Assembly: GCA_964016885.1 (NCBI GenBank)
Contig: OZ024742.1
Span: 329,344,001-329,408,000 of the forward strand
Origin: Eledone cirrhosa
Taxonomy: Eukaryota
Length of the DNA: 64,000 nucleotides
Direction of reading: 5' to 3'
Shown here: positions 4,368-26,277 of the stretch, piece by piece
Position numbering within the stretch: the stretch's first letter is position 1
Layout: every line of letters begins with the position of its first letter
Notes under the pieces: generated by a model
Database searches by the model: none
Seen by the model: only the letters and a program-made list of their open reading frames with translations
What the model was told of the DNA's origin: nothing
Translations under genes and position numbers: made by a program

Positions 4368-5752
4368 CCCATAAAACCGGCTGCTATTTTTAGCGCACGA
4401 GTATTGGACGCGCTAGATGCTGCTACACATGTGCGTTCAACAACACATTTCTCTCAGTCTTCTTAAGTATTTTGAAGGGAAACTTACCAATTTCTGGATA
4501 CCTGCAGAAGAGCACAGGAATAGGAAATTTCACTTAATTGTTGCGAAACAAATTTAAAATTTAAAACTTAAAATTTGTCCACGTATCTCGGCTGTTGCCA
4601 ATATAGGTTTGTTTTTATTGATTTATTATTTTAAATCGAGACAGACAAACCGTATTATTTTAATTAGTATTTTTCAATCTAGCTAACTTGGTCATTTGCA
4701 ATGAAAACAATGTATACTTGTATCAGTGTTTATCCCTATGATATATTCATTTGTATTACACGGCTCAGAAATATTCCTTTCTTTGAGCTAGTTAATTGTA
4801 AAGGACTATTTGAGTTTATAACTCCATATATAATATTCGCGGCTCCATGCGTTGAGCTAATTTTTAGTCCCATAAAACCGGCTGCTATTTTTAGCGACAC
4901 GAGTATTGGACGGGCTAGACGCTGCGACACATGTGCGTTCAACAACACATTTCTCTCAGTCTTCTTAAGTATTTTGAAATGAAACTTACCAATTTCTGGA
5001 TACCTGCAGAAGAGCACAGGAATAGAAAATTTCACTTAATTGTTGCGAAACAAATTTAAAATTTAAAATTTGTCCTGGTATCACGGCTGTTGCCAAGATA
5101 GGTTTGTTTTTATTGATTTATTATTTTAAATCGAGAGAGGCAAACCGTATTATTTTAATTAGTATTTTTCAATCTAGCTAACTTGGTCATTTGCAATGCA
5201 AACACACGTATACTTGTATCAGTGTTTATCCCTATCATATATTCATTTGTATTACACGGCTCAGAAATATTCCTTTCTTTGAGCTATTTAATTGTAAAAG
5301 ACTATTTCAGTTCATAACTCCATATATAATATTCTCGGCTCCATGCATTGAGCTAATTTTTAGTCCCATAAAACCGGCTGCTATTTTTAGCGACACGAGT
5401 ATAGGACGCGCTAGACGCTGCGACACATGTGCGTCCAACAACACATTTCTCTCAGTCTTCTTAAGTATTTTGAAGTGAAACTTACAAATTTCTGGATACC
5501 TGCAGAAGAGCACAGGAATAGGTAATTTCACTTAATTGTTGCGAAACAAATTTAAAATTTAAAATTTAAAATTTGTCCAGGTACACGGCTGTTGCCAATA
5601 TAGGTTTGTTTTTATTGATTTATTATTTTAAATCGAGACAGGCAAACCGTATCATTTTAATTAGTATTTTTCAATCTAGCTAACTTGGTCATTTGCAATG
5701 CAAACACATGTATACTTGTATCAGTGTTTATCCCTATCATATATTCATTTGT
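4365..5752 (+). mobile_element. ~500-bp non-coding tandem repeat (~2.8 units), one HHR-like motif per unit; retrozyme-like
   Basis: Units start at ~4365, ~4866 and ~5362 (agtcccataaaaccggctgc). HHR folds at 4497-4587, 4999-5082 and 5495-5584. The array ends at a TA tract. Confidence 0.8.
5495..5584 (+). ncRNA. Hammerhead-like motif with CAGAAGA core (also 4497-4587, 4999-5082; minus-strand mirrors ~16612-16701, 17114-17197, 17609-17699)
   Basis: Stem I tacctg/caggta; core CAGAAGA; stem II gca.../...tgc; GAAA; stem III acaaattt/aaatttgt; GUC triplet. Confidence 0.7.
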
Positions 5753-5832
5753 GTGTATATATATATATATATATATATATATATATATATATATATATAT
5801 ATATATATATATATATATATATATATATATAT

Positions 5833-8800
5833 ACCATGATATTAAATAAGTGGAAACTATATTTATAAAACCATATTTATTTTATTATGTATATTTCAAG
5901 GGCAACCAAACAACATTGGTGCGCTTTCATCAGATAAAATACAAAGTTTGTTTTATAAATAGAGACGTACCCATGAAAGTTCTACCTTATCGGTTGGAAA
6001 TTCACTGGATAGTGGAAACATATTAGTGATTATTCAAACTTATGTGTGAATATGCAAATGAATGTGTAAATAATTGAAAAACCGTTTATATAAATGACAC
6101 TGGGGAAACATAGGGAAGAAACAGAGAGATAAAAGATATTAATATTACGAGATAGATAGAAAGAAGAAATTTACAAGAGGATGAATAGAAGTCTTGTAAC
6201 GTAAATATGGGGAAATACATTTTAAGTTTATATCTACTAATGGTACGTATATTTACTATTATTTAGTTGTTAGAATTCTTTTTAATATAACTGTTTATAC
6301 TTTTTGGCACAAGGTCAGCAATTACCCAGTACATTACAGGTACTTTATTTTATCGACCCCGTAAGGATGAAAGGCAAACTTAACCTCGGCGGGATTCTTT
6401 TTAATATAATGTTTTCTGTTATAAGTAGATAGAAAAATAAATAGATCTATATAGAAAAGTAAATATATATAGAAATTAGATAGAGAAATATATGGAAACA
6501 TAAATAGTTAGAAAAAAGATGGAAAAATAGATAGATATAAAAATAAGTAGAACAATAAATAGAAAAATAAATAGTAAAATAAATAGAAAATAAATAGTAA
6601 AATAAATAGAAAAATCAAAAAAAAATCAATAAATAGATAAAAATATAAATAGATAGATAAATGGATATATGGGTATATCGTGTTATAGATAATTGTTTTA
6701 ATGAGTTATGAGGGATATTGGTTTATATTTAATGTAAGTAACAAAGTTAACTGAGTTAATAAAAATGTTTAAATTTATATATTTTAAATTGGGAAGATAC
6801 GGAAAAAAACTCCAGTTTTGTTTATTTATTAGTTAGTATGAGACCATTTTATCAAAATAAGTTTCAATGTTAAAGATATAAATGTTGAAAAACATATTTA
6901 GCCTGAATTAGTTAGTGGTTATAAATCTAATAAAAGATATTAAACAATTTTTTTATTAAAAATATTTAAAAATATTAAAAATTCGTGAAAATTAAAAAAC
7001 ATTTTTTTTATTTAAAAAATGTTATAATCATTTTTATAAAACAATTTATAAAAACTTTATAAAAACTTTTTTTTTATATTTTATAAGAGATAAGTAGATT
7101 AAAAAAAAGTAAATTTTAACATATATGAAAGATTTAAGAAGTAAAAAATGAAAAAATAAAAAATAAAGAATTAAAATACTTAAAAAATATTAAAATTGAA
7201 TTTAATATTAAAAATTAAAATTTAAAAATTTAGGATCATATTTGTATATAATTTAAAAAATTTTAAGAAGTGAAATTATAGCAAACAATATATTACAACA
7301 GAGAGGATAAGATTGTTATTGAAATAAGTAGAAATATTACAAGTACAATTATAATTTATAATTTATATATAGTTATAAACTTTGAATTTAGGCGATGTTT
7401 ACAAGAACTAAATAAATTCATTCGTACATTAATAGATTTCCTCAACACACAATTTGCAAAACCCAGATAAAACTGTGTTTACGTAGGCATGTGTTTCTGA
7501 AATGATTTCCCAAGTTAAAGAATAGTCCATACTTTTGGATTTTAAGTTCCATATCAGGTTTGATAGAGAAGTTGAATATTTGTTATCAAGTTTATTGAAC
7601 GAGCATTTGTGATTATTCCAACGAGTTTTAAAGTCTGTTGAAGTTGAACCTACACAATTAAATATATTATCACTGGTTTTGACTGTGCATTTATAGACCA
7701 CTTCCTTATCTAAGCACTTATTTTTTAAAGGACAGTTTGATTTAATTCTACAGTTACATTTAGCGGAGTTGATGTTATTCGGAACGGTACTATTATGTTG
7801 GATACTGCTAGAGATATTACTGCTATTTTTGTTATGGTTTCAATTTCTATTATTGATTCTATTTATATGTTGTGCTATGTTCATAGTAGTAGAGTAAGAT
7901 AGTTTTATTGTATGTCTGTTAAAGATTGAGTTGTATCTATAGGCTTTAGGAAAACATGTATCTAGCGCTTTAAAGAATAGCTTAGCTAAAGGTGTTTTAA
8001 CGCTTAATGAAAATGGAGGTGAATACCAAATCATATTTCTAGTTCTATTTCTACTGTTAGTTTAAGTTAGGTTTTTTTATTGTAATTATAATTAATGGTA
8101 GGGTTATTTGCCTTATCACTGTTGTCAATGTATTTAATCTTATTTATATAGCCTGCTCTTTTTCTTATCGTCAAAAATGTTTTTATTAGCGGAGGATCGT
8201 GAAATACGTTGTTGGATAGAATTTACAATAGTGTTCTTGATAGATCTAGGATGATTAGAGTTGACGCTTACATAGTTTAGATTCTCATTAATTTTATGGA
8301 ATGGATAGTAGAGCCCTGTGTTAAGGTTTAATGTTACGTCTAAAAAGTTAACAATGTTATAGTTATTCTCTATTTCTAACTTAAGATTGTAGCTATTCAA
8401 AAATTGTATTATTGATTTTCTTTTTCTATTAATTTCACAATTACTATGATTTTCAATTAAAAGCAGGATATCATCACGATATAAACCACCGGTCATCTCT
8501 GGTATTTTTCTATGTAGTGTATTATTAATAAATAGCCCCACACGATCCGTTATTTGCGCCGAGTCCGATGTACCCATGGTGATATCAAAATTATTTTTTC
8601 TATCAGCCCCAGTCCAGAGATGATTGTGGAATACAATTAAAGTTTTCCATTAAAATGATATGCATTTCTTCTATATATCTATTTATTTTTCTATCTACTT
8701 ATAACAGTAAACATTATATTAAAAATAATTCTAACAACTACATAATAGTAAATATAGGTACCATTAGTAGATATAAACTTAAAATTTATTCCCCCATATT

Positions 8801-24866: not shown

Positions 24867-25094
24867 ATATATATATATATAATTATATATATATATAATT
24901 ATATATATATATATTTATATATATATATAATTATATATATATATAATTATATATAAAAATATATAAATATATATATATATAAATATATATTTATATATAT
25001 ATATATATATATATATATATATATATATATATATATATATATATATATATATATATATATATGTATATATATATATATATATATATATATATAT

Positions 25095-25731
25095 AAATGT
25101 ATGTATGTATGTATACGTACATACATATATGTATACAGACGTACAGTAGCATGTATATATATACATACAGGTACACATACATATATGCACGTATCAGTTT
25201 GCCGAACATTTATTATAATGCTCGGTTTGTTCGTTTGTAAACAAACAAACAGCCTGAATTACGCCGTACAGTGTTTAGGCAACCACGTCACCTTTTTGTT
25301 CAACACTGACACAGGAACGATGTACTAGTTTCAAGTTTATTAGCTATCGTCAGCACCGTATGCCCTTCTGCCAGATGGTTGAACGTCCGAAATGATATAC
25401 TTTCCTTATGAAAATTAACGGCTGAGCAGCCTAATTTGCATATCGAGTGAGTTCAGTCAGCCAGGCGCACCGAAAACGATAAATGGAATAGAATGAAACG
25501 AAATTTAATTCCTCACTCTTAGTATGGCACTTACTTAAATGTATGTATACGTACATACATATATGTATACATACGTACAGTAGCATGTATATATATACAT
25601 ACAGGCACACATACATATATGCACGTATCAGTTTACCGAACATTTACTATAATGCTCGGTTTGTTCGGTTGTAAACAAACAAACAGCCGGAATTACGCCG
25701 TACAGTGTTTAGGCAACCACGTCACCTTTTT
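25095..25731 (-). mobile_element. ~442-bp non-coding unit in ~1.45 tandem copies with one HHR; retrozyme-like, embedded in (TA)n
   Basis: 25095-25297 is repeated at ~25537-25731; HHR at 25317-25359. Confidence 0.75.
25317..25359 (-). ncRNA. Minimal type I hammerhead ribozyme
   Basis: Minus strand reads acggtg CTGACGA tagctaataaactt GAAA ctag TA catcgt; ACTAGT is a palindrome. Confidence 0.8.
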
Positions 25732-26277
25732 TAATTATATATATATATATAATTATATATATATATATATATAATTATATATATATATATATATATATAT
25801 ATATATATATTATATATATATATATATATATATATATATATATATATATAAATATATATATATATATAAATATATATATATATATATATAAATATATATA
25901 TATATATAAATATATATATGTATACATATATATAAATATATATATATATATAAATATATATATATATATATATATAAATATATATATACATATATATATA
26001 TATACACACACATATATGTATATATACATATATATATATATGTATATATATATATATATATATATATATATATATATATATATATATATATATATATATA
26101 TATATATATATACATATATATATATATACATATATATATTTATATAATATATATATATAATATATCAGTAATATTAATAAATTATTAGTTAGTTTCAGAA
26201 GATCCCGTTAAGGGTGAAAGCAGCGATTCTTTGCTTAAACTTTAATCTGTTATTTTAATAATATATATATATAATAT

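Follow-up and report, generated by a model that had tools for sequence, protein, structure and literature searches.

Hammerhead ribozymes are universal in most clades of Penelope-like elements (PLEs) and yet dispensable in vitro, which leaves room for debate over whether the ribozymes of these elements must cleave. Uridine 4 (U4) of the core is treated as invariant, and the PLE survey of Craig et al. (2021, PMC8557442) searched with the motif cuganga, in which U4 is hard-coded. Here we examine a 64,000-nucleotide stretch of the Eledone cirrhosa genome (contig OZ024742.1, positions 329,344,001 to 329,408,000, forward strand; hereafter the window) that carries hammerhead motifs of two families reading CAGAAGA, with adenine at position 4 (A4). 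Family A is a short tandem repeat, and family B is the end repeat, or pseudo-long terminal repeat (pLTR), of a PLE. Core positions follow the conventional hammerhead numbering, in which the CUGA segment forms the uridine turn.

The closest described systems to family B are the hammerheads of the Hydra clade of PLEs (PMC8557442, File S2), with which it shares a type I fold near the 3' end, short stems, (TA)n targets and, as in many published Hydra rows, a U.U at 10.1/11.1. Unlike the Hydra rows of that file, 26 of 26 of which read CUGA, B has CAGA; its stem III loop is longer and non-palindromic, and its 3' untranslated region (UTR) is longer, with ~940 nt to the ribozyme. Family A resembles the animal non-LTR retrozymes (Cervera and de la Pena 2020, PMC7229834; Li et al. 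2026, bioRxiv 10.64898/2026.07.22.740005) in being a short, dispersed, non-coding tandem unit with one type I hammerhead and a PLE-like insertion structure. At 497 bp it lies above the 170-400 nt of the earlier report and within the 51-972 bp of the later one. Unlike known non-LTR retrozymes, it has an A4 core and a long stem III.

Natural changes in the core have precedents. The viroid U4C hammerhead (Ambros and Flores 1998, cited in PMC3088659) is a position-4 change that is slow in vitro, sufficient in vivo and compatible with propagation; the present change is to A rather than C and is the fixed state of a high-copy genomic family instead of a viroid variant, and a C4 family of this same genome is the closer parallel. 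The U3-A8 variant of PLEs (PMC4209133; PMC3088659) is, like A4, a family-level core variant that fixed-motif searches miss, and two U3-A8 families occur here; unlike that compensated pair swap of known activity, U4A comes without a demonstrated compensating partner. Searches of the open-licence literature turned up no natural U4A core, and a family-wide A4 core is apparently undescribed.

Hammerhead motifs in the window

The CAGAAGA core is present at all nine sites named by the original prediction, which had been made from the letters of the window. C3 lies at 4505, 5007 and 5503 in family A, all on the plus strand, and at 10048 (+), 11733 (-), 21484 (+), 23161 (-), 24710 (+) and 26196 (+) in family B. 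Downstream of each core follow stem II, GAAA, stem III, an NUH triplet (GUC in family A, CUU in family B) and a 3' strand that pairs with stem I, giving the type I layout of three stems around the core with the ends in stem I. The A15.1-U16.1 pair is present as well. Measured against CUGANGA, the motifs have A at position 4 and keep the five other fixed bases. The G10.1-C11.1 pair is present in A and is replaced by U.U in B, a state tolerated in hammerheads (PMC3088659). The features of the two families are:

4364..5752, + strand: partial trimer of family A1, a ~497-bp non-coding and apparently retrozyme-like unit
4496..4588, + strand: A1 hammerhead, unit 1 (C3 4505, A4 4506, predicted cut after 4579, one stem I mismatch)
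4999..5082, + strand: A1 hammerhead, unit 2 (C3 5007, predicted cut after 5074, one stem I mismatch)
5496..5584, + strand: A1 hammerhead, unit 3 (C3 5503, predicted cut after 5577; the hammerhead is the minimum-energy fold)
16444..17832, - strand: mirror duplicate of the A1 trimer with three A4 hammerheads (C3 17691, 17189 and 16693)
23091..24353, - strand: B insertion, a C-terminal fragment of a GIY-YIG endonuclease followed by the entire 3' UTR/pLTR
23107..23181, - strand: B hammerhead in the 3' pLTR (C3 23161, predicted cut after 23121)
24352..24864, + strand: inverted, 5'-truncated B pLTR with a ~85-nt tail; hammerhead with C3 24710 and damaged stem II
9308..10118, + strand: mirror duplicate of the B 3' UTR/pLTR
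10028..10102, + strand: B hammerhead, mirror of 23161 (C3 10048, A4 10049, predicted cut after 10088)
11643..11814, - strand: short, diverged B end, 79% to the reference, with a hammerhead at C3 11733
21403..21574, + strand: mirror duplicate of the 11733 copy (C3 21484)
26185..26267, + strand: 83-bp B stub with a hammerhead at C3 26196

The A1 trimer sits in the linker region of another PLE open reading frame (ORF) and ends at (TA)n. The B hammerheads at 23161 and 24710 belong to one insertion, whose endonuclease fragment (24353-24096) is 87% identical to the B protein; the 23161 hammerhead has the U.U at 10.1/11.1 and an extended stem I with an internal loop. Mirror duplicates among the B copies had been recognised from the start, and the three minus-strand mirrors of family A had been overlooked; with all mirrors removed, three distinct A and four distinct B sequences are left.

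A structural descriptor with position 4 left free found 24 motifs in the window, 11 with A4, 11 with U4 and 2 with C4, against a mean of 0.2 and a maximum of 2 in 40 shuffles; the 24710 copy, with its damaged stem II, scored under the threshold. The claim that all nine copies fold as hammerheads holds for the presence of stems and core elements, with qualifications: the hammerhead is the minimum-energy fold in only one of the nine (5503), units 4505 and 5007 each carry a single stem I mismatch, and the ensemble share of the hammerhead fold is 0.63 for 5503, 0.14 and 0.01 for the other A units and ~0 for B. Measured by constrained folding, the distance to the hammerhead fold has a median of 0.3 kcal/mol in A1 (n=28) and 3.9 in B (n=63), no worse than the 1.9-9.7 of six U4 groups of the genome. 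No Rfam hammerhead family appears among 70 window matches at E<=1; since canonical-core motifs are missed too, this failure is not owed to A4 alone. A search with CUGA fixed would miss the A4 cores, in line with the original prediction.

Position 4 as a family state

Across the 3.0-Gb assembly, A4 is the state of both families. A 25-letter pattern for B with position 4 free gave 19,521 matches, of which 19,327 have A, and the T (78), G (71) and C (45) states are at the level of the mutation background. Exact matches to A1 comprise 321 with A4 and 3 with U4, one of the three being a copy of its sister A2. A CUGA consensus was seen in neither family, and local decay is rejected as the cause of A4. 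With the whole core left free, CAGAAGA occurs in 97 of the first 100 listed of 11,693 matches. B1 is a very young burst, and retention of the seven-nucleotide core across its copies reflects descent from few source elements; the nine window copies cannot count as independent and represent about two origins of A4.

Prevalence was estimated from 100 evenly spaced 10-kb stretches (1 Mb), in which 59 motifs were found (1 in the reversed control): 44 with U4, 15 with A4 (14 B and 1 A1) and none with C or G. Thus, for all that U4 is treated as invariant, the commonest single hammerhead of this sample, B, lacks it. When any one core change was allowed, 21 clusters present at two or more loci emerged from a 1.73-Mb set enriched for A and B loci; their main core states were canonical in 15, U3-A8 in 2, A4 in 2, C4 in 1 and, in 1, two different changes of G5. 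None of these clusters shares a main-state change at A6, G8 alone, A9, G12, A13 or A14, which makes position 4 the sole unpaired core site replaced repeatedly. The C4 family (for example L303-L308) has 482 matches, with C in 96 of the first 100 listed and T in the other 4, consistent with CpG decay; it has a palindromic stem III, and a Hydra-type ORF lies downstream in 1 of 6 loci (L306).

Related elements of other organisms (92 loci, redundant) have a canonical core in 75 cases and U3-A8 in 1, and 16, mostly truncated, are without a credible one; no credible A4 ribozyme was found among the 92, a single weak A4 match lying inside an ORF. The initial metagenome search and a viral search found no relatives. 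From each of sequencing runs X5 and X6 came a single low-depth contig, and these two are not taken as a sign of spread to other species. Separately, one metagenome contig (L324:1467) holds a single C4 hammerhead of another PLE type.

The two element families

Long frames lie upstream of the B motif in most of 14 longer loci (13 of them picked for B), reaching 645 codons and encoding a reverse transcriptase with a C-terminal GIY-YIG domain, YRDD and YIG included, which supports the original reading of B as a PLE end repeat. Frames of 645 codons (locus L088) and of 501 codons to the stop (L085) overlap; no uninterrupted full-length B ORF was seen among the fetched loci, and a Pfam search gave no family match for the protein. 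The protein has RWR, DKT, CNCRNRVDC (CxCx5C), CDLC (CxxC) and CKH (CxH) and lacks GxKF/Y, motifs it shares with Hydra-clade PLEs, whose published marks are RWK, DKT, CxCx5C, CxxC and CxH with no GxKF/Y (PMC8557442). Protein motifs and insertion structure together mark B as a Hydra-like PLE; no analysis supports the label PLE3 under which it was first reported, and a Naiad assignment is rejected because the endonuclease is C-terminal.

Insertions of B show a (TA)n target, an inverted truncated pLTR and an optional tail. The unit, from ORF and UTR lengths, is ~3.2 kb, compared with a Hydra-clade typical size of <3 kb; because of this length and the A4 core, both of which depart from what is typical of the clade, B is termed Hydra-like. 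Its ribozyme lies ~940 nt past the stop and, in tandem arrangement, ~195 nt ahead of the next ATG, and copies end 27 nt or ~110 nt beyond the predicted cut, at (TA)n. A derived subfamily of B, accounting for 11 of 100 junctions listed (for example L041:1690-1760), starts with a partial second hammerhead reading U3-A4, which follows different upstream sequence. On the antisense strand of the B pLTR, a CGGAGGA...GAAA motif recurs at 9990 (-), 23219 (+) and 24652 (-); its stems are partial, and it failed the structural descriptor.

Family A has no detectable DNA similarity to B, in agreement with the original prediction. Its ~497-bp unit occurs in truncated, partly tandem and inverted copies that end at unit position 388 or 468; copy ends lie ~180 or 260 nt beyond the predicted cut. 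Hydra-type ORFs occur sporadically near A-group loci (14 of 135, of mixed families). With a tandem non-coding unit, a type I hammerhead and no consistently linked ORF, family A appears to be a non-autonomous, retrozyme-like element, and from its insertion structure we infer that it was likely moved by PLE proteins.

Three sister families place A1 in context. A2 gave 165 matches, with A in 88, U in 9, C in 2 and G in 1 of the first 100 listed; U7 occurs in 24 of those 88 A4 copies. A3 and A0 are more distant sisters; collected with U4 queries, A3 has U4 in 29 of 29 copies and A0 in 10 of 10 after removal of one spurious row. A1 and A2 are 84% identical, and all four families have an 8-bp stem I helix of differing sequence. 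Informative site patterns in the group divide 18 to 19, which indicates a mosaic history. In trees of 76 and 58 rows, short copies left out, A3 joins A1 (99/98) and the U4 copies of A2 nest within an A4 clade (99/88), so position 4 has changed more than once; one gain of A4 with reversions, or two gains, are both possible. Inside the A3 unit (~537 bp; L146, L259-L282), the 3' strand of stem II and the 5' strand of stem III are duplicated, and GAAA is broken in the second copy.

Constraint on the fold

Because inserted copies evolve neutrally, only differences shared between subfamilies are informative, and the test of constraint was restricted to them. In 20 aligned A0, A1 and A2 copies, 96% of stem cells are paired and four pairs have changed on both sides, so that stem covariation is present; slid controls pair at 10-43%, and relatedness inflates the shuffle test. 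For example, A1 has U-A at stem I pair 2.2/1.2 where A2, likewise an A4 family, has C-G. Among 84 B copies (U4-selected loci dropped), none of the 36 core and stem sites lying outside the search pattern carries a shared variant, compared with 2 of 14 in the loops and 18 of 145 upstream (Fisher p=0.015); in the 22 B copies of the even sample, the counts are 1 of 52 versus 16 of 134 upstream (p=0.024). In contigs of two same-organism runs, the in-motif variants listed lie at loop positions, save the private change of this copy, with none at 10049 among the variants listed (40 of 47 rows). That shared variants avoid the core and stems indicates that the fold is constrained.

An off-switch in which A4 pairs with loop III or stem II, as seen in minimum-energy folds, is not supported, since the median distance to the hammerhead fold is larger for natural U4 copies of B (5.4 kcal/mol, n=16) than for the A4 copies (3.9, n=63). 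In another run, X4, contigs over 10050-10109 have a summed depth ~10-17x that of the upstream pLTR, compared with ~2x in run X1; as the library type is unspecified, this skew is given no weight.

Proposed slow cleavage and its alternatives

Our preferred reading, in which we place about even confidence, is that both motifs, each carried by a Penelope-type retroelement, have a type I hammerhead fold whose A4 core is predicted to cleave slowly rather than not at all, and that the elements tolerate this. Because U4 is in contact with the A6-N7 phosphate (PMC3088659), its replacement by A should weaken the turn. Loss of this contact would lower the rate of cleavage in a core that would still have G5, A6, the C3-G8 pair, G12 and the A15.1-U16.1 pair. 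Slow cutting would be tolerable if the elements are copied from RNA in which the ribozyme is whole. Genomic copies carry the entire ribozyme, as in the lizard PLE, which starts reverse transcription downstream of its hammerhead and for which unprocessed RNA was the main insertion substrate in vitro (PMC11167929). A slow cutter would leave more intact template for internally primed reverse transcription while permitting some processing of tandem transcripts, and the B protein or a related Hydra-like protein may mobilise family A in trans. Counted in favour of this reading are the near-complete fixation of A4 in B and A1, the repeated replacement of position 4 and of no other unpaired core site, the sparing of core and stem sites by shared variants, the altered stem I pair between A1 and A2, and the tolerated U4C change of the viroid.

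A stronger proposal, which strikes us as doubtful, goes beyond tolerance: the A4 hammerheads would be active natural ribozymes with a rebuilt uridine turn, selected as slower cleavage raises retrotransposition, and position 4 would be a tuning site switched among U, A and C. In that case, the hammerhead with the most copies in some animal genomes would have escaped searches with CUGA fixed, perhaps also in PLE clades reported without one.

Several observations weigh against slow but genuine cleavage. Pairwise mutagenesis of a hammerhead of the satellite tobacco ringspot virus (sTRSV) type found low activity for every single or double mutant of the CUGA turn apart from the C:G swap, and no rescue in any of them (PMC9901934). 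Copy starts show no excess at the predicted cut: 118 fall there, 76 at -4 and 330 at +7. Of 30 copies examined, 0 ran into the ORF; with no canonical family as positive control, the test is weak. U4 has returned in some A2 source lineages (9 of the 100 listed copies, versus 1 G and 2 C), which could mean that U4 is favoured. Taken alone, the core has too few sites to separate catalysis from protein recognition; the B 3' end may be conserved so that the element's protein can recognise it, and not for catalysis, and the B copies were gathered by alignments required to cover the ribozyme. The original prediction had called A4 a functional or attenuated variant rather than decay; decay is indeed set aside, and the functional half stays tentative, copy starts bearing no trace of cleavage.

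The main rival takes up these points. It holds that the A4 motifs are catalytically dead, that A4 owes its rise to a founder effect in two source elements, and that the fold persists because the element's protein recognises the 3' stem-loop near the sites where reverse transcription starts. We judge this unlikely, though deserving of serious weight. Dead hammerhead mutants left PLE insertion in vitro unaffected and no reads ended at the cut (PMC11167929); Naiad PLEs thrive without canonical hammerheads (PMC8557442); and the extreme youth of B1, the lack of any fossil of cleavage in genomic copy ends and the low activity of CUGA mutants (PMC9901934) point the same way. Against it, no family in the cluster census has lost a catalytic base, the only variation being at position 4 and in the 3-8 swap. 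A1 and A2, at 84% identity, keep all other core bases and have repaired one stem I pair, although that degree of identity would by itself leave 11 bases unchanged ~15% of the time.

A second rival, that A4 is fully or nearly fully active here through rescue by A7, by contacts between loops I and II or by the element's protein, seems to us quite improbable. A7 is the main state in all three non-U4 origins but in 3 of 17 U4 families when scored by eye (p=0.018 in a Fisher test applied post hoc), and other organisms have it in 18 of 66 canonical motifs; A1, moreover, has long stems and folds readily. The A4/U7 sublineage of A2 described above counts against this rival and leads us to reject a strict coupling of A4 and A7; no epistatic rescue was seen inside the CUGA motif (PMC9901934), and A4 is absent from the 75 canonical Hydra-type loci elsewhere, which is unexpected were it free of cost. 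It is least probable, and in our view very unlikely, that A4 was selected because C3-A4-G5 forms a YAG splice acceptor after a pyrimidine tract, giving a spliced message without the ribozyme: TTTCAG in B, CCTGCAG or CCCGCAG in A1 and A2, a CAG just ahead of stem I in the U4 sister A3 where A1 and A2 have CTG, and a Drosophila virilis Penelope intron that ends at the 5' end of helix I (PMC4209133) all fit, but a further AG lies 5 nt upstream in B and 9 nt downstream in A1 and A2, no spliced junction recurs among the genomic junctions listed (100 of 695), no joint to 10051 appears among 15 joints listed from runs without an RNA label, and the C4 family is left unexplained.

Slow, tolerated cleavage and its main rival carry different consequences. 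If A4 is active, the ribozyme consensus widens; if it is dead, a burst of 19,000 copies needed no cleavage. This genome holds natural matched sets, namely B with A4 or sporadic U4, the A4 and U4 sublineages of A2, the U4 sister families and the C4 family, and these would make it possible to ask, within one genome, if elements of this kind depend on rapid self-cleavage.

Duplications and other elements in the window

The window is repeat-rich. Most of 3082-12834 has an inverse-orientation duplicate at 12881-23894, with 99.9% identity over 3082-9317 and 99.4% over 9315-12834; this ~10 kb inverted duplication may be a recent rearrangement or an assembly artefact. Within it, 9973-11814 forms a composite palindrome (87%) whose outer parts are B ends and whose inner parts are short repeats bearing another hammerhead family (C3 10925, plus strand, canonical; 10829, minus strand, with C4). 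At least four further hammerhead families with canonical cores occur in the window, all missed by Rfam, at 9089, 13109, 16265, 5933, 1529, 19898, 19762, 26378, 29268, 30618, 57106, 63673 and 63888. A U3-A8 core-swap hammerhead lies inside a Hydra-type pLTR at 1195-1300 (+), as it does at loci L143, L266 and L185. Finally, a 359-codon frame at 46681-47760 (+), encoding a PLE-type reverse transcriptase and endonuclease of a different clade, lies within a long inverted repeat at 45570-49551.

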